NCBI RefSeq assembly: GCF_964213995.1 | Contig: NC_135818.1 | Span: forward strand, 61,256,001-61,320,000 | Direction of reading: 5' to 3' | From: Mustelus asterias | Taxonomy: Eukaryota | DNA: 64,000 nt | Part shown: positions 8,469 through 53,040 of the stretch, piece after piece | Layout of the letters: each line of letters opens with the position of its first letter | How positions within the stretch are numbered: the first letter of the stretch is position 1 | Made by a program: the position numbers and the translations under genes | Notes under the pieces: model-generated | What the model was told of the DNA's origin: nothing | The model's input: only the letters and a program-made list of their open reading frames with translations | Databases searched by the model: none

Positions 8469-8693
8469 TAAGTTTTGGTTGGGAATTTCAACCTGAAGCT
8501 TCTGGCTCAAATGGTAGGGTGCTAGCTAAACACAGCTCTACAAAAGCTGCCAGACCCCAAAATGTTCTACCTCTTCAATGCTATCACACGCCACAACCAC
8601 AGAGGGAGACTCATTATCTTGTATTGGATAAATAACCTCGATCTTGCTCCGTAAGGAGGGTGACAGTAGCTTTTAGGACATGTTAATGCTGCT

Positions 8694-9135
8694 GGTGGAG
8701 ATAAACACAGTAAGAAGTTTAACAACACCAGGTTAAAGTCCAACAGGTTTATTTGGTAGCAAAAGCCACACAAGCTTTCGGATTCAAAATACATGAATTT
8801 TAAACCCTTAATTATTGAACTTTCTTAACAAAGGAAAATGTTAATTGCATTTTATATACGCACATATGAAGTATTATTTTAGTACTGAACTGCACGGGGA
8901 CGCGTTATAATGGAAAGGAACCATTTTAACATAAACTTGCTAACATTGACGGTGTGCTTTCTGACATTTCTCAGATCTGTGAAGCAGTTGGTTTTGTAAT
9001 ACATTATTCTCTACTCACGATCTCAGGATTTGCTACCAAATAAACCTGTTGGACTTTAACCTGGTGTTGTTAAACTTCTTACTGTGTTTACCCCAGTCCA
9101 ACGCCGGCATCTCCACACGGTGGAGATAAACACAG
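8694..9135. mobile_element. Composite insertion: two inverted Penelope-like ends enclosing an inverted copy of host POLE2 sequence, with 17-bp target duplication
   Basis: ggtggagataaacacag at 8694-8710 and 9119-9135. Arms 8702-8782 and 9029-9117 match the ends of the PLE at 49483-52853. Core 8783-9030 is the reverse complement of 9294-9541 (247/248 by eye). Confidence 0.9.
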
Positions 9136-9220
9136 AGTCAGTCCCAGCTGTTTTATGAATGAGCAGCTTGGCGCCCTTCCAAGAAGCCGTCTGCGTTCCG
9201 CTTTGTGACGAATGCGGCGA

Positions 9221-9232
9221 TTTGGCGCCAAA
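9221..9232. promoter_or_regulatory. Palindromic double E2F site TTTGGCGCCAAA just upstream of the POLE2 ATG (second TTGGCGC at 9168)
   Basis: Matches the E2F consensus TTTSSCGC on both strands; POLE2 is a replication gene of the E2F-regulated class. Confidence 0.65.
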
Positions 9233-9240
9233 GCTGCAGG

Positions 9241-9305
9241 ATGGCGACTAAAGTCAAGAGCAAAGTTTCAGCTGCTTTTAAAATGCACGGATTAATCCTG
9301 AGATC
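9241..9305 (+). CDS. POLE2: DNA polymerase epsilon subunit 2, exon 1
   Basis: ATG MATKVKSKVSAAFKMHGLILR(S), GTGAGT donor; homologous to the POLE2 N-terminus (..SAFKLRGLLLR). Confidence 0.9.
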
Positions 9306-9908
9306 GTGAGTAGAGAATAATGTATTACAAAACCAACTGCTTCACAGATCTGAGAAATGTCAGAAAGCACACCGTCAATGTTAGCAAGTTTATGTTAAAA
9401 TGGTTCCTTTCCATTATAACGCGTCCCCGTGCAGTTCAGTACTAAAATAATACTTCATATGTGCGTATATAAAATGCAATTAACATTTTCCTTTGTTAAG
9501 AAAGTACAATAATTAAGGGTTTAAAATTCATGTATTTTGAAATAAATATAAGCGAACCTCCAAGTCACGGTACATTGCTCCATATCCGCCTATTTTTGAA
9601 GTAACTTCATTTCCACAGCTTTTCCGGTTATTATTGTTCAGAGCTAATGTTGTTGATATGAGCTGTGTTCACTGGTGGAGTGCTTTGAGGAGGCAATTGC
9701 AGAGTTTGGGGGAAGGGGGCAACTGGTAAGGGGGGGAGGGGGTGAGGAATATACCACATACTGCTTTTCAGAGTTGTAAAGCTAAAAGGGGTATGAACAT
9801 AGGGAGGAAAGAAGCCATAAAGGAATAATTTTTAAATGGGAGGCATTGGATTATGAGGGTCTAATTCAGAGTTTACAAACACAGGTATGATGGCGGAGTG
9901 GGATTTTA

Positions 9909-10568: not shown

Positions 10569-10669
10569 TAATGCTGCCAAATTTCTTGTGGATGTTCTTG
10601 AGACAGTCAATGAGTTGGAGCTTGAAGATGCAATTGAACGCATCGTTGATGCAATTGAAAAACAACCAT
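10569..10669 (+). CDS. POLE2: POLE2 exon 2
   Basis: AG/GT bounded, 101 nt, NAAKFLVDVLETVNELELEDAIERIVDAIEKQP; phases fit neighbours. Confidence 0.93.
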
Positions 10670-11931: not shown

Positions 11932-13845
11932 CCATAAGACCATAAGACCATAAGACATAGGAGCGGAAGTAAGGCCATTCGGCCCATCGAGTCCACTCCA
12001 CCATTCAATCATGGTTGATTTCAACTCCATTTACCCGCTCTCTCCCCATAGCCCTTAATTCCTCGAGAAATCAAGAATTTATCAATTTCTGTCTTGAAGA
12101 CGCTCAACGTCTCGGCCTCCACAGCCCTCTGTGGCAATGAATTCCACAGACCCACCACTCTCTGGCTGAAGAAATTTCTCCTCATCTCTGTTCTAAAGTG
12201 ACTCCCTTTTATTCTAAGGCTGTGCCCCCGCGTCCTAGTCTCCCCTGTTAATGGAAACAACTTCCCTACGTCCATCCTATCTAAGCCGTTCATTATCTTG
12301 TAAGTTTCTATCAGATCTCCCCTCAACCTCCTAAACTCCAATGAATATAATCCCACGATCCTCAGACGTTCATCGTATGTCAGGCCTACCATTCCTGGGA
12401 TCATCCGTGTGAATCTCCGCTGGACCCGTTCCAGTGCCAGTATGTCCTTCCTGAGGTGTGGGGCCCAAAATTGCTCACAGTACTCCAAATGGGGCCTAAC
12501 CAGTGCTTTATAAAGCCTCAGAAGTACATCCCTGCTTTTGTATTCCAAGCCTCTTGAGATAAATGACAACATTACATTTGCTTTCCTAATTACGGACTCA
12601 ACCTGCAAGTTTACCTTTAGAGAATCCTGGACTAGGACTCCCAAGTCCCTTTGCACTTTAGCATTATGAATTTTGTCACCGTTTAGAAAATAGTCCATGC
12701 CTCTATTCTTTTTTCCAAAGTGTACGACCTCGCACTTGCCCACGTTGAATTTCATCAGCCACTTCTTGGACCACTCTCCTAAACTGTCTAAATCTTTCTG
12801 CAGCCTCCCCACCTCCTCAATACTACCTGCCCCTCCACCTATCTTTGTATCATCGGCAAACTTGGCCAGAATGCTCCCAGTCCCGTCATCTAGATCGTTA
12901 ATATATAAAGAGAACAGCTGTGGCCCCAACACTGAACCCTGCGGGACACCACTTGTCACCGGTTGCCATTCTGAGAAAGAACCTTTTATCCCAACTCTCT
13001 GCCTTCTGTCTGACAGCCAATCGTCAATCCATGTTAGTACCTTGCCTCGAATACCATGGGCCCTTATTTTACTCAGCAGTCTCCCGTGAGGCACCTTGTC
13101 AAAGGCCTTTTGGAAGTCAAGATAGATAACATCCATTGGCTCTCCTTGGTCTAACCTATTTGTTATCTCTTCAAAGAACTCTAACAGGTTTGTCAGGCAC
13201 GACCTCCCCTTACTAAATCCATGCTGACTTGTCTTAATCCGACCCTGCACTTCCAAGAATTTAGAAATCTCATCCTTAACGATGGATTCTAGAATTTTGC
13301 CAACAACTGAGGTTAGGCTAATTGGCCTATAATTTTCCATCTTTTTTCTTGTTCCCTTCTTGAACAGTGGGGTTACAACAGCGATTTTCCAATCCTCTGG
13401 GACTTTCCCTGACTCCAGTGACTTTTGAAAGATCATAACTAACGCCTCCACTATTTCTTCAGCTATCTCCTTTAGAACTCTAGGATGTAGCCCATCTGGG
13501 CCCGGAGATTTATCAATTTTCAGACCTTTTAGTTTCTCTAGCACTTTCTCCTTTGTGATGGCAACCATATTCAACTCTGCCCCCTGACTTTCCTGAATTG
13601 TTGGGATATTACTCATGTCTTCTACTGTGAAGACTGACGCAAAGTACTTATTAAGTTCCTCAGCTATTTCCTCGTCTCCCATCACTAGATTACCAGCGTC
13701 ATTTTGGAGCGGCCCAATGTCTACTTTTGCCTCCCGTTTGTTTTTAATGTATTTAAAGAAACTTTTACTATCATTCCTAATGTTACTGGCTAGCCTACCT
13801 TCATATTTGATCCTCTCCTTCCTTATTTCTCTCTTTGTTATCCTT
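11932..13845 (-). mobile_element. Young 5'-truncated CR1 LINE with uninterrupted ORF2 RT/C-terminal reading frame
   Basis: ORF 12021-13886 with [39 protein letters not shown] and KFADD; tandem (ccataaga)n 3' tail. Confidence 0.95.
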
Positions 13846-22127: not shown

Positions 22128-22904
22128 TTGGAAAAAAGAATAGAGGCATGGACTATTTTCTAAACGGTGACAAAATTCATAATGCTAAAGTGCAAAGGGA
22201 CTTGGGAGTCCTAGTCCAGGATTCTCTAAAGGTAAACTTGTAGGTTGAGTCCGTAATTAAGAAAGCAAATGTAATGTTGTCATTTATCTCAAGAGGCTTG
22301 GAATACAAAAGCAGGGATGTACTTCTGAGACTTTATAAAGCACTGGTTAGGCCCCATTTGGAGTACTGTGAGCAATTTTGGGCCCCACACCTCAGGAAGG
22401 ACATACTGGCACTGGAGCGGGTCCAGCGGAGATTCACACGGATGATCCCAGGAATGGTAGGCCTGACATACGATGAACCACTGAGGATCGTGGGATTATA
22501 TTCATTGGAGTTTAGGAGGTTGAGGGGAGATCTGATAGAAACTTACAAGATAATGAACGGCTTAGATAGGATGGACGTAGGGAAGTTGTTTCCATTAACA
22601 GGGGAGACTAGGACGCGGGGGCACAGCCTTAGAATAAAAGGGAGTCACTTTAGAACAGAGATGAGGAGAAATTTCTTCAGCCAGAGAGTGGTGGGTCTGT
22701 GGAATTCATTGCCACAGAGGGCTGTGGAGGCCGAGACGTTGAGCATCTTCAAGACAGAAATTGATAAATTCTTGATTTCTCGAGGAATTAAGGGCTATGG
22801 GGAGAGAGCGGGTAAATGGAGTTGAAATCAACCATGATTGAATGGTGGAGTGGACTCGATGGGCCGAATGGCCTTACTTCCGCTCCTATGTCTTATGGTC
22901 TTAT
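22128..22904 (+). mobile_element. Second copy of the same young CR1 family (3' end)
   Basis: Near-identical reverse complement of ~11941-12718; its 183-aa ORF differs from the 621-aa ORF C-terminus at about two residues. Confidence 0.93.
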
Positions 22905-32708: not shown

Positions 32709-33258
32709 GTGATTTTTACTGGAGAGTTTTCCAATAGGTATCTGCTTCAAGGTGGTTTTCTGGCATTTGATTTGATAAATGAATAGTATTTTGGTTTATT
32801 GCAAGGCCCAAGCCATTATTGCAGGCTATCAAACTGTTGCTATCATACTAAACAATATACTTCATTCTACTTCCTTAGCCAATAACTACTGTTTCTATCA
32901 ACTTGCTGCAATAATCTTTTAATGTTCAGAAAATGTACCCAGATTCTTAATAGAGGATTTTGGATTATGGGTGCCAAGTTCATGAAGGCTGAATTAGTTA
33001 GAGAGGGTTGGGGGGGGGGGAATAGAATATTCACAGCAGAGTTTTGGATGAGCCCATGGAATGCTGGAGATTGGGAAACTGGCAAGGAACTACACATTGG
33101 TTCTGTGGCAGTTAAAATAATGTGCAGAAGATTCATTGTAGATTTCAGCTAGAGACCAGACAAACTAAAAATAATATCCTGTCACACAAAACACCCATAG
33201 AAAACATTTTGTAACAGTTACAAGATACAGTTAACCTGACTGCTTTATTCTGCCACCA

Positions 33259-33306
33259 TGTGGAGATGCCGGTTTAAACCTGTTGGACTTTAACCTGGTG
33301 TTGTGA
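33259..33306. mobile_element. 48-bp Penelope footprint made of both inverted ends
   Basis: tgtggagatgccgg + taaacctgttggactttaacctggtgttgtga, both matching the PLE ends; flanked by ttctgccac at 33248-33256 and 33309-33317. Confidence 0.8.
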
Positions 33307-34350
33307 TGTTCTGCCACACCATTAATAATTCTTATTATAGAAATTTATGTTGCACTCTGTCTAATTGGTAGTGCATGTATTTGGGAATATGATATAATCA
33401 ATAATGATTTAACACACATATCTTTGTTTATGTCTGTGACCTAACCCCAAGCCAACTATACAGTTCATACTGAAAGCTTATATCTGTAATGTTGTGCTCC
33501 GTAGCAGTACTGTTGGTGGAACATAGTTGGCTTGAGGTTGGCCCTTCATACTGTTTTCAAAAAGTAATGGAAGCATTAGATGATGGTTTAGCAACAGGTG
33601 AGGTATACTTTAAGCATTACCTGCAGCTTCTTTCCTTTCAGAAGAGCACCAGAAGAAATTTTGAAATTGGGATGGTGCAGGGGGGTCAGGGAGCATGATA
33701 ATGAAAAGCTGGATGCCAGTATGAACTCCAGTGCTCCATATGGCCGTGAATAACCAGTCTGAGGACAGAACAAAATATATCTGGAAGATGAGCAAAATCC
33801 TATCTTTTATGCCTGACTTTTATTCTATGATCTATGAACAGCATCGAATCCTAATTAAAGCCCTTGACTAAAAGCTCCTGTGTCAGATGTAGCCATCAGG
33901 GCAACGTTTATTTGCTGTTCAGTGTTTCTCGATCATAGGAACTGAAGTAGGCTATTAAGCCCCTCATTCCTCCTCCACCATTCTATTAGATCATGGCTGA
34001 TCTGTACTTCATGTTCCTTTACCCCCACCATTTTTCAATATCCCCTTTACCCTTGTCCAACAAAAATGATCAATTTCTGGCTGAAAATTTTCAATTGACT
34101 GCATCCACCACCTTTTGTGCAAAACAGTTACATTGCAAAAGGCAGTAGAAATCTGGAAAAGTGCTTCCTGACGTAAATTTAGAGCTAGGATATTTAAGAA
34201 TTAAAATCACTTGCATTTGACAATTTAAAAAAAGATCAGATCCATTAGAAATTAAAATTGTCGATGTGGGAATATGGTCCTTATGTTGTTCGTTATTGCC
34301 CAATCTCAGCCACTTGATGATCTTGAAACCTTTCATGTTTTGACTCTCAG

Positions 34351-45940: not shown

Positions 45941-47410
45941 ATCCTTTGTAGAGGTAACTGATGTTTAGCAGTACTAATTATAAAGCACCACAAATTGCGA
46001 TCTTGTCAATTTGATGGCTCAGTGAGTTTGCACCATCAAACGCACCACTGCCGCATTATTTCTGAATAAAATGCAAGTTTTCTAATTACAGCGCATAAAG
46101 AACCTTGAGGGTTAAATTGTATATAATAACACAATTCAAACTAGATTCTCCCCCATCATAGTCACTTATGGCAATCCAGGCTTAAATCTATTTATGTTAA
46201 ACTTTAGATAATTTTACTGTCAGAATCTGAAATTTTAATCCTAAAGGAAGCAAGGAAGTACTTGCAGTATACAATGCTGGCTAAATTAGCCTGATATCAA
46301 AACATTAAGGATTGCTACCTTACTACAGTTATTTTAATTTCTAAATGCAGATCCACCGGTTGGCACTAAGTTAGAATCTTGGAAATTTATGGTGCCGGGG
46401 ATTAACATGTCTGTGTTGGCTTTTTATTGGAGATGGATCCCACTGTTATGTTTCTGCCTGTAGGCCAGTGTCTCCCATGCTCTGAATGAATCAGTGGCCT
46501 CTGCCTCAACCTCTCCTTGTGGCAATGTATTCCTTGCTATAACAGTTCTGCATAAAGATGTATTACCTAACCTTTCTCCTCGTTCTCTTAGTAGTTATTT
46601 TAAATTGATGGCTCCTTTTGACTGACCTTCCAACCATAAGAAATTCTCCACAAAGTCTTCTCTGCTCTAATGAAAATCTAGCATAGTTGCTCAACCTTGT
46701 TATCATCCTTTTGGATCTGTGCCACACACCCTTTGTGGCTTTAATATCTTGTCTATAATCCTTACATGCCCTGTGTTACATTCGCAACTTCACTTCAAAA
46801 GTACTTTATTGGCTGTGAAGCACATTGAGAGGTCCTGAGGTGGTGAAAGACACTCCAAAAAAATGTGAGGTTTTTTTTATAATGAGGCCTCGCAAAATGC
46901 ACACCACATTATGGATTTGGCATTGCTTTAAACTGATATTTGGCATTGCTGTATATTAATTTATTATTACTGCTTCATTTATTTTATATCCTGTTAGTTA
47001 ACATATGTATTATATTTTCAGGCCTGTTCAGTTAGACACAATGCTCAAATTTTTAGGTGTTAATTTAATATTTATGACAAATATAGATAGAATATACAGC
47101 ATGCTGTACAAGCAAAATGGCCATAACAGTAAAGAGGACCCTTCACAACATTTCTGCTGTGAAACAATCATTTCAAATGAATGAAGTAAATATCTGTGTT
47201 CCTGAAACAACTTTAGCTTGTAGAGAATTCATCTTTGTTTCTTGTCTGGGTGTACATTCTTTCTTATTGCTGCTATGTGACAACTCTGTTGTAACTCTCT
47301 TGTTTCTCAGCTTTCCCAAAGATTTTACTACACTTGTTTAAACAGCTGGCACCTCCTTTGTGGTGCTTTATAATTAGTACTGCTAAACATCAGTTACCTC
47401 TACAAAGGAT
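45941..47410. repeat. Perfect 54-bp inverted repeat pair (45941-45994 / 47357-47410)
   Basis: atcctttgtagaggtaactgatgtttagcagtactaattataaagcaccacaaa and its exact reverse complement. Confidence 0.9.
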
Positions 47411-49201: not shown

Positions 49202-49482
49202 GTAAGAACCACTGCTTAAAGTTCTTAGCACAATGTAACCTAAATTAATATTAGGAAAAAAACTAATTAGTACACCGCTTTAAAAATATTTTATTTCCAA
49301 TAATCTTCGTGAATTTTCTGAATTCAGTGTTACAGTGTTTTTTTAATTACTGTTAAGTATTGTACTTCTTTAACAAAATGTTGCAGCTTCTTGCAATGTT
49401 GTCACCTTCAATCAGTTGCCATTTGCAATGCATTTTTTTCTATTTTTCCTTTAATTTTTTTTGGCTGCCGTTCTTGCCACGA

Positions 49483-52400
49483 TGTGGAGATGCCGGCGTT
49501 GGACTAGGGTAAACACAATAAGAAGTCTCAAAACACCTGGTTAAAGTCCAACAGGTTTATTTGGTAGCACAAGCCACTAGCTTTCGGAGCGCTGCCCCTT
49601 CATCAGGTGAGTGGGATTTCAGTTCACAAACAGGGCATATAAAGACACAAACTTTATTTACAAAATAACGGGTGGAATGCGAGTCTTTACAGGGTAATCA
49701 AGTCTTAAAGGTACAAACAGTGTGAGTGGAGAGAGGGTTAAGCACAGGTTAAAGATATGTGTATTGTCTCCAGACAGGACAGTTAGTGAGATTTTGCACA
49801 CCCAGGCAAGTTGTGGGGGTTACAGATATTGTGACATGAACCCAATATCCCCGTTGAGGCCGTCCTCATGTGTGCGGAACTTGGCTATCAATCTCTGCTC
49901 AGCGACTCTGGGTTGTCGTGTGTCGTGAAGGCCGCCTTGGAGAACGCTTACCGGAAGATCAGAGGCCGAATGCCCGTGACCGCTGAAGTTTTCCCCAACA
50001 GGAAGAGAACACTCTTGCCTGGTGATTGTCGAGCGGTGTTCATTCATCCGTTGTCTGTGCATCTGCATGGTCTCCCCAATGTGCCATGCCTCGGGACATC
50101 CTTTCCTGCAGCGTATCAGGTAGACAACGTTGGCCAAGTTGCAAGTGTATGTACCGTGTACCTGGTGGATGATGTTCTCATGTGAGATGATGGCATCGGT
50201 GTCGATGATCTGGCACATCTTGCAGAGGTTGCTGTGGCAGAGTTGTGTGATGTCGTGGTCACTGTTCTCCTGAGGGCTGGGTAGTTTGCTGCGGACAATG
50301 GTCTGTTTCAGGTTGTGCGGTTGTTTGAAGGCAAGAAGTGGGGGTATGGGGATAACCTTGGCGAGATGTTCGTCTTCATCAATGACATGTTGAAGGCTCT
50401 GGAGAAGATGTCGTAGCTTCTCCGCTCCAGGGAAGTACTGGACGACGAAGGGTACTCTGTCCACCGTGTCCCGTGTTTGTCTTCTGAGGAAGTTGGTGCG
50501 GTTTTTCGCTGTGGCGTGTCGGAACTGTCGATCGATGAGTCAAGCGCCATATCCTGTTCTTATGAGGGCATCTTTCAGCATCTGGAGGTGTCTGTTGCGA
50601 TCCTCCTCATCTGAGCAGATCCTGTGTATACGGAGGGCTTGTCCGTAGGGGATGGCTTCTTTAACGTGTTTAGGGTGGAAGCTGAAGAAGTGGAGCATTG
50701 TGAGATTATCCGTGGGTTTGGGGTACAGTGAAGTGCTGAGGTGACTGTCCTTGATGGAGATGTGTGTGTCCAAGAATGCAACTGATTCTGGAGAGTGGTC
50801 CATGGTGAGTCTGATGGTGGGATGGAACTTGTTGATGTCATCATATAGTTGTTTCAGTGATTGTTCACCATGAGTCCAAAGGAAGAAAATGTCTTCGATG
50901 TATCAAGTGTATTGCATCGGTTGAAGGTCCTGTGCGGTGAAGAGGTCTTGTTCGAACCTGTGCATGAAGAGGTTGGCACATTGAGGTGCGAATTTGGTCC
51001 CCATGGCTGTTCCGTGTGTCTGGATGAAGAACTGGTTGTTGAAGGTGAAGACATTGTGGTCGAGGATGAAGCGGATGAGTTGTAAAATTGCATCTGGAGA
51101 TTGGCAGTTGTTGGCGTTGAGTACTGAGGCAGTTGCAATGCCATCGTTGTGGGGGATGCTAGTGTAGAGTGCCGAGACATCCATTGTGACGCGGAGTGCT
51201 CCTGGTTCAACTGCTCCATGTGTGCTGAGTTTCTGTCAGAAGTCCGTAGTGTCGCAACAAAAGCTGGGGGTTCTTTGTACAATGGGTTTCAGTATGCCCT
51301 CGATGTAGCCGGAGAGGTTCTTGCACAGGGTCCCATTCCCGATATGATGGGACGGCCGGGTGTGTTTGCCTTGTATATCTTCGGGAGGCAGTAGAGATCT
51401 CCAACACGGGGAGTACGTGGAATGAGAGCACGGAGGGTGCTCTGAAGGTCTGGATCAAAGATCTTGATCAGTCTGTTGAGTTGACAGGTGTGTTCTTTGG
51501 TCAGGTCTGCTGTAACTGTCTGTAGTGTTCCTCGTTGTTCAGTTGTCGGTATACTTCTTTGCAGCAGTCCATTCTGTTCAGTATGAGATGGCCCCTCCTT
51601 TGCTGGTTTGCTAACAATGTTGCGATTGGTCTTGAGAGCGCAGATGGCGTTGCGTTGTGCCTGGGTGATTTTTGGGGCTGTCTTGTGAGTGTGGTTGATT
51701 AATCTGGCATTGATGCACCTCCTGACGGCTTGGGCATACATGTCAAGTCGAGGGCAGCAGCCTTCCAGGGGAGTCCAATTTGACTCTTTCTTCTTCGGTT
51801 GCTGCACTGCGGACTCTGTCGGCTGTTCCGGTTCATTGGCTGTCTCATTGTGTTCGCTGTTGGCCTCTTGGGGTTTGTGGAAGAACTCCCGCAGCCTCAT
51901 TCGCCTGATGAATTCCTCTGTGGACACGGCGGACAGAGTACCCTTCGTCGTCCAGTACTTCCGCGGAGTGGAGAAGCTACGACATCTTCTCCGGAGCCTT
52001 CAACATGTCATTGATGAAGACGAACATCTCGCCAAGGCCATCCCCACACCCCCACTTCTTGCCTTCAAACAACCGCACAACCTCAAACAGACCATTGTCC
52101 GCAGCAAACTACGCAGCCTTCAGGAGAATAGTGACCACGACACCCCACAACCCTGCCACAGCAACCCTGCAAGACGTGCTGGATCAGCGACACGGATGCC
52201 TTCATCTCACGTGAGAACACCATCCACCAGGTACATACACTTGCAACTCGGCCAACGTTGTCTACCTGATATGCTGCAGGAAAGGATGTCCCGAGGCATG
52301 GTGCATTGGGGAGACCATGCAGACGCACAGACAACAGATGAATGAACACCGCTCGACAATCACCAGGCAAGAGTGTTCTCTTCCTGTTGGGTAACACTTC

Positions 52401-52853
52401 AGCAGTCATGGGCATTCGGCCTCTGATCTTTGGGTAAGCGTTCTCCAAGGCGGCCTTCACGACAACACAGAGTCGCTGAGCAGAGACTGATAGCAAAGTT
52501 CCGCACACATGAGGACGGCCTCACCCGGGATCTTGGGTTCATGTCACACTATCTGTAACCCCCACGACTTGCCTGGGCTTGCAAAATCTCACTAACTGTC
52601 CTGGCTGGAGACAATACACATCTCTTTAACCTGTGCTTAACCCTCTCTCCACTCACATTGTCTGTACCTTTAAGACTTGATTACCTGTAAAGACTTGCAT
52701 TCCAACCGTTATTTTGTAAATTGAGTTTGTGTCTTTATATGCCCTGTTTGTGAACTGAAATCCCACTTACCTGATGAAGGGGCAGCGCTCCAAAAGCTCG
52801 TGCTACCAAATAAACCTGTTGGATTTTAACCTGGTGTTGTGAGACTTCTTATT
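49483..52853 (-). mobile_element. Penelope-like element (RT + GIY-YIG, 5'-truncated, disrupted) with inverted partial second copy
   Basis: Minus-strand fragments MDVSALYTSIPH..GTAMGTKFAP (RT) and NVVYLIRCRKGCPEAWHIGET..RMNEHR (GIY-YIG). 51922-52853 is an inverted copy of ~49515-50472. Flanked by gttcttgccacga (49470-49482) and gttcttgccatga (52854-52866). Confidence 0.93.
49573..49615 (-). ncRNA. Minimal type-I hammerhead ribozyme motif in the Penelope pseudo-LTR
   Basis: Minus strand: cac CTGATGA a ggggc-agc-gctcc GAAA gc TA gtg, i.e. CUGAUGA and GAAA core boxes, stem II, and a short stem I cac/gtg. PLE pLTRs are known to carry minimal hammerheads. Confidence 0.7.
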
Positions 52854-53040
52854 GTTCTTGCCATGAGCAGAGGCAGATAACGGGTGAACAACAATGACTT
52901 CAGTGCTGGAAGAAACTGAATGTGTATTGGCAGATGGAGTGTGTGCTAATTGGGCAATGCGCAACTGTCTTGGTGTGGCGGCAGGAGTTCCAATGATAAG
53001 TGTACATCTTTTTAATGCAAGTTTTACTTATTTGTTTTAG

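Follow-up and report, generated by a model that had tools for sequence, protein, structure and literature searches.

The window, the whole 64,000-nt stretch of DNA analysed here, carries the first exons of POLE2 on the forward strand. The coding part of exon 1 (9241–9305, followed by a GT donor at 9306) matches Pfam Dpoe2NT (2–21) at E 0.0016, under the curated cutoff, and exon 2 (10569–10669, forward strand), with its AG and GT read from the sequence, matches the same domain at E 8.6e-9, over that cutoff. Ahead of the coding part lies CpG-rich DNA (9168–9228, forward strand) with two TTGGCGC motifs, at 9168 and 9221, which we take to be putative E2F sites. No divergent host gene was found upstream of POLE2 in the 56 scanned frames of at least 55 amino acids. 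Elsewhere the window holds a 777-nt inverted repeat 3′ of POLE2 exon 2 (11942–12718 and 22128–22904, 99.1% identity, 9.4 kb apart) and a perfect one of 54 nt (45941–45994 and 47357–47410, 1.4 kb apart).

A Penelope insertion lies immediately upstream of this gene. The preliminary description had reported two Penelope ends lying head to head, a direct repeat of 17 bp and, in inverted orientation, 248 nt copied from the POLE2 exon 1–intron 1 junction, and all of these are present. The repeat, GGTGGAGATAAACACAG, occurs on the forward strand at 8694–8710 and 9119–9135 with 100% identity, its right copy 105 nt upstream of the POLE2 ATG. Next to the left copy is a tail-less Penelope arm (8711–8782), antisense on the forward strand, which stops 3 nt beyond the GAAA of a hammerhead-like core. 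The inverted host copy, hereafter the filler (8783–9030, reverse strand), includes the splice donor GTGAGT at 9018–9013 on the reverse strand and is followed by a right arm with a tail (9029–9118, forward strand) that belongs to a subfamily ending in CCACACG. The two arms form a perfect 62-nt inverted repeat, and both match Penelope copies elsewhere in the genome. The filler is the reverse complement of 9294–9541 on the forward strand, with a single mismatch (8818/9506; 99.6% identity). This donor starts 158 nt past the right repeat copy and comprises the final 12 nt of exon 1 (9294–9305) and, from the GT at 9306, 236 nt of intron 1. Of the candidates scored across the genome, this donor was the sole match to the filler apart from the filler itself.

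Both microhomologies that had been claimed are real: the last 9 nt of the left repeat copy (8702–8710) are common to the target and the left arm, and 2 nt (9029–9030) are common to the host copy and the right arm. G9119 is also common to the target and the right arm, and comparison of the junction sequences found zero microhomology between the left arm and the host copy at 8782/8783. The right arm had been assigned to 9029–9117; the arm is there, but 90 genomic copies end in CCACACG and base 9118 is therefore element-derived, which makes 9118 its true end.

The insertion belongs to a family abundant in what is probably a shark genome; a 31-mer of its arm has 56,683 exact genomic matches. One family copy (L125) contains a 915-amino-acid open frame with a Pfam RVT_1 match (E 4e-10) and, at its C terminus, VVYLIRC..WYIGET, a GIY-YIG-type motif recognized by eye that gave no Pfam match at E 0.01; a search for a PDB relative found none. 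The predicted combination of reverse transcriptase (RT) and C-terminal GIY-YIG-type motif in a single ORF is that of an EN+ Penelope-like element, and the insertions have the inverted pLTR arm, the tail of 30–40 nt on one arm and the short target duplication (TSD) of such elements. The hammerhead-like motifs (CTGAAGA, a stem II that folds, and GAAAGCTT) were likewise identified by eye, and an Rfam search returned no hammerhead match. The left arm had been said to stop within the hammerhead core; its position agrees, but the hammerhead is recognized by motif, and such stops are common, with arm ends inside the hammerhead-like core in 60 of 272 left and 64 of 275 right arms (about a fifth). The right arms of L022 and L034 start with GTGTGGC, the predicted cut position of a minimal hammerhead; of the 275 right arms, 5 end at this position.

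The POLE2 copy falls into a small subfamily, with 90 matches (54 + 18 + 18) to the CCACACG end genome-wide. The base that follows is A in 54 of the 90, and many TSDs start with GATG, which suggests either homology-biased first priming or a target preference. Other copies show the range of forms in the family. L017 and L126 are partial tandem copies with a 57-nt element segment in both arms, and L017 has a perfect 412-nt inverted repeat that terminates at an internal tail junction; the apparent 57-nt filler of L017, L067, L125 and L126 was rejected as belonging to the element. SINE and LINE copies are nested in the Penelope arms of L003 and L265. Within the window, an older long copy (49470–52863) has the same head-to-head layout between 10-nt direct repeats (49470–49479 and 52854–52863), and a minimal head-to-head insertion of 52 nt (33248–33317) has a tail arm of 16 nt and a second arm of 32 nt, flanked by direct repeats of 9 nt.

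A search for an empty site had been suggested as a check on the structure, and two relatives, organisms B and C, lack the insertion. In a comparison over 8470–9293, a contig of organism C contains the equivalent of 8538–8674, 20 letters, 9119–9293 and then the donor, an empty site with a single copy of the 17-mer; organism B likewise has no element before 9118. The empty site in the relatives shows the 17-bp repeat to be a genuine target duplication, and the single copy in organism C led us to reject an element origin for the 17-mer, the halves of which resemble the element end. At the mismatch 8818/9506, organisms B and C both have the donor letter, so the filler letter at 8818 is derived. 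Two substitutions (8912 and 8952) and an 8-nt gap (8967) distinguish the species from both relatives and are common to donor and filler; the copying therefore came after those changes. The empty site in the relatives and these shared changes support the recent age that had been proposed.

Contigs from short reads of the same sample (run X1) support both outer junctions (contigs 8470–8727 and 9095 onward). None of the X1 contigs listed spans the inner junctions at 8782/8783 and 9029–9030. At the mismatch, the X1 contig that runs through the donor has the letter of the filler, and depth across the duplicated part, averaged over the whole contig, is 22.7, not raised above the 21.9 of the flank; all three observations count against the structure. 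A further run, X3, does not cover the filler. The near-identical filler and donor copies were probably collapsed in these contigs, with short links into a very high-copy repeat dropped.

We surveyed 430 loci of the family, sampled by tail motif, and analysed 413 distinct tail ends that had no less than 500 nt of sequence upstream and 300 nt downstream (median flank, about 1.4 kb on the left and 2.0 kb on the right). The sample is non-random: it takes in nearly the whole CCACACG subfamily, the best matches to the POLE2 insertion and the first-listed copies on contigs C1 and C2. Of these ends, 275 are paired with a TSD, 33 are single-arm with a TSD and 105 have no TSD call; head-to-head arms with a TSD are the normal insertion form of this Penelope family. 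Exact TSDs are 12–13 nt long in 115 of 190 cases; the 17 nt at POLE2 are inflated by the second-arm microhomology, which is the longest of 194 scored. Second arms begin 28–47 nt from the tail end, and at their start at least 2 nt are common with the target in 98/194, against a shuffle null of 6%, or about 16% with two-sided chance extension. Two primed ends on element RNA would account for the arms and the TSD. The proposal of a twin-primed Penelope insertion with a true TSD is supported by the empty site and by the 275 of 413 ends with paired arms and a TSD.

The joins between arms were scorable in 148 of 228 simple two-arm copies; 61 are insert-free and 87 have extra or unmatched bases. Microhomology of at least 2 nt occurs in 32 of the 61 insert-free joins, against 16% expected. 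There are 40 fillers of at least 9 nt, in 39 insertions, and 21 of 31 short ones contain a copy of at least 8 nt of adjacent arm sequence (shuffle mean, 0.7). The short fillers are patchworks of adjacent sequence, and joins across the family bear the marks of end joining. Short flank matches of 13–18 nt were left out of the count (inverted in L005; direct in L022, L183 and L266; both in L030).

Nine fillers reach at least 90 nt, and seven match their own flank, the main segment at 96–100% identity. Besides the POLE2 locus, 6 of 274 paired insertions hold own-flank fillers of 98–426 nt (four inverted, one mixed and one direct), so that, with the POLE2 locus included, five of seven are pure inversions. 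The donors of the six span distances of 53–1,645 nt, and six of all seven donors start within 53–321 nt; together with the donor 158 nt from the TSD at POLE2, these loci uphold the earlier claim of local capture. The inverted fillers are 98 nt in L141 (100% identity, 0 nt of microhomology at the fold-back junction), 252 nt in L178 (98.4%, 2 nt), 426 nt in two segments in L381 (96.6% and 93%) and 134 nt in L385, the donor of which is ambiguous, with 96.3% identity to its own flank versus 97.7% to another copy of the same repeat (L420). L325 has a direct filler of 354 nt (98.9%) from 1,645 nt away, with other copies at 89% or less, and L395 combines 112 nt direct with 129 nt inverted (99–100%), copies of adjoining flank segments (848–1534 of the oriented locus). 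All six donors lie on the tail-less side, and POLE2 is the sole tail-side case among the long own-flank fillers. Unpaired ends, screened within the first 267 tails, yielded L094, in which 29 nt are inverted from the tail-side flank with 2 nt of microhomology at the arm.

Several other candidates were rejected: in L265 the long filler is a LINE that inserted within the left arm, in L130 it is a repeat-like piece, and L232 and L181 have fillers (138 and 66 nt, respectively) that look element-like by eye and were put into the masking reference ahead of the final count. In none of the 275 paired insertions did we find a spliced piece or a long filler derived from a unique locus far away. The donors at the six other loci are LINE or anonymous DNA without promoter-like CpG content: observed/expected CpG at these sites is 0.27–0.44 (median over 266 sites, 0.33), compared with 0.57 at the POLE2 insertion site. 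Around these six sites and L094, no host exon was found in 117 frames, which gave LINE domains and one low-complexity match.

We favour, at a probability of roughly 0.6, double target-primed reverse transcription followed by DNA-templated fold-back synthesis during end joining. The element endonuclease would cut both strands about 12–13 nt apart, and each 3′ end would prime cDNA synthesis on element RNA, the first at the tail end and the second about 28–47 nt further in, aided there by microhomology (9 nt at POLE2). Both cDNAs would halt after 70–90 nt. The right-arm cDNA (bottom strand) would fold back, its last AA pairing with TT at 9294–9295 of its own strand, and on a template strand exposed by resection or unwinding it would be extended by 248 nt, then released and joined bluntly to the left arm. 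The copier would probably be a polymerase-theta-type end-joining enzyme or, alternatively, the element's own RT acting on DNA. A DNA template is favoured because donors are tightly local and non-genic and distant captures are absent. At POLE2 the donor is local, inverted and on the strand of the extending end, as fold-back requires, and L094 repeats this geometry without a left arm to prime.

The principal alternative is that the left-arm cDNA switched to nascent, unspliced POLE2 RNA at 9541, copied it into exon 1 and joined the right arm through the 2-nt microhomology; we consider this doubtful. By gene structure, the POLE2 donor is complementary to the transcript as required, and the preliminary description was correct that the filler has the orientation of a cDNA of that transcript, but fold-back predicts the same orientation equally. 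The two routes differ in the junction at which priming is needed. Fold-back is favoured because the 2-nt microhomology sits at its priming junction, whereas 8782/8783, where a switch to RNA would have primed, has none. RT jumps need no homology, and the 2-nt match is itself weak: at the putative priming junction, 2 nt are found at POLE2, L178 and L094 and 0 at L141, so that it is not a consistent mark of the fold-back junction in the other long cases.

As a switch to RNA would have it, the donor lies close to the promoter, on the downstream side of the cut. The POLE2 insertion, the one tail-side long case, is in a CpG-rich promoter, a place where nascent RNA would be expected; fold-back would also need about 420 nt of exposed strand there. 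L325, direct and 1.6 kb off, sits poorly with fold-back. Simple resection and fold-back could not produce L395: either both DNA strands served as templates, or a single bottom strand was copied two times. Two cDNAs that copied neighbouring stretches of a single bottom-sense template would account for L395, which is the best case for RNA. Against RNA stand the absence of distant unique-locus or spliced pieces (0/275), the LINE or anonymous donors in both orientations, and the patchwork short fillers. The genome-wide donor check that had been proposed, run over the 413 ends, confirmed local donors but, near the other six loci, revealed neither a host exon nor a CpG-rich promoter, and the donors lie in both orientations; the RNA-template step is accordingly not favoured. 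Two papers give precedents, one pre-mRNA co-insertion for L1 (PMC10191854) and the movement of intron-containing host genes by Penelope elements (PMC3846280). That the Penelope RT jumps in vivo from its own RNA onto host transcripts that are still attached near the cut, making a POLE2 cDNA here and copying a host transcript twin-primed from both ends at L395, seems unlikely to us; if true, it would explain how Penelope elements acquire host sequence with introns, a step for which a route has been missing.

A later origin of the filler is improbable; on that reading the head-to-head arms, folded into a hairpin or cruciform, would have suffered a break that was mended by a templated insertion from nearby. 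In its favour, the arms form a perfect 62-nt inverted repeat and templated inverted insertions are known at plain breaks (PMC11724301). Against it, long fillers are about as frequent in the young CCACACG subfamily (2/63) as in the rest (5/212), and the target duplication is intact. Least probable is a filler produced by misassembly between real arms, as the X1 contigs might suggest, given the same architecture at six other loci, base-exact junctions and the expected behaviour of contig builders, which would drop links into a high-copy repeat and merge near-identical copies.

The Penelope literature describes head-to-head arms, a tail and a TSD (PMC3846280, PMC8557442). Our insertions resemble Penelope/Poseidon insertions (PMC3846280, PMC8557442, PMC11167929) in the inverted 5′-truncated arm, one-arm tail and short TSD, in RT with a C-terminal GIY-YIG motif and in two start points about 30–45 nt apart; they differ from those descriptions in having host DNA from the adjacent flank between the arms. 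Cutting of two strands and two start sites were reported in vitro (PMC11167929), where starts were non-homologous, whereas the in vivo starts here have target microhomology. The formation of head-to-head ends is called undefined in one of these sources (PMC8557442) and tentatively ascribed to self-priming on antisense RNA in another (PMC3846280), in which host captures lie between direct pLTRs and moved in trans, unlike the flank fillers here. In the literature searched, which took in few subscription papers, neither local templated capture nor twin priming turned up for Penelope elements.

For L1, published studies report fold-back inversions of 52–220 bp, credited to DNA polymerases, with one pre-mRNA co-insertion (PMC10191854), 22 templated insertions (10.1101/2024.08.27.596794) and three more (PMC11702581). 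As in L1 twin priming in these three sources, two ends are primed and a local segment of about 50–250 nt is duplicated, attributed to DNA synthesis at resolution and mostly from the second-primed side. In contrast to L1, the element is of another class, its two arms are copied from overlapping stretches of one terminal repeat and the insertions are germline-fixed. Capture is also more frequent (about 2%, against 4 fold-backs (0.4%) and 22 templated insertions of 3,598), and donors start 53–1,645 nt away rather than within 15 bp as in the L1 tumour set. The L1 pre-mRNA co-insertion (PMC10191854, one event) likewise placed unspliced local sequence in an insertion near a transcribed gene, but here orientation cannot separate RNA from DNA and the sibling events are not gene-tied. 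Inverted or direct local copies also arise in SD-MMEJ/polymerase-theta insertions and in fold-back insertions at yeast breaks (PMC11724301), as do patchwork short inserts and 1–3 nt of microhomology. The break ends here differ in being fresh retrotransposon cDNAs, and the copies are 98–426 nt long, compared with 5–34 bp in the yeast study.

Overall, the POLE2 insertion is real, recent and recurrent in kind, probably a known repair by-product in a new element class. Both the DNA and the RNA route are already described for L1; our literature searches turned up neither for Penelope elements. The POLE2 housekeeping promoter now lies within a 248-bp inverted repeat, and the filler adds a predicted antisense splice donor upstream of the gene. 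The Penelope junctions favour two primings on sense RNA and then host end joining, a reading that agrees with in vitro results in which both strands were cut and synthesis started at two sites (PMC11167929). The genome holds tens of thousands of such ends. Extrapolated from our non-random sample, local capture at about 2% would amount to some hundreds of small duplications genome-wide, a number large enough to decide between DNA and RNA templates by counting. The insertions are a useful natural data set on the completion of Penelope insertion.
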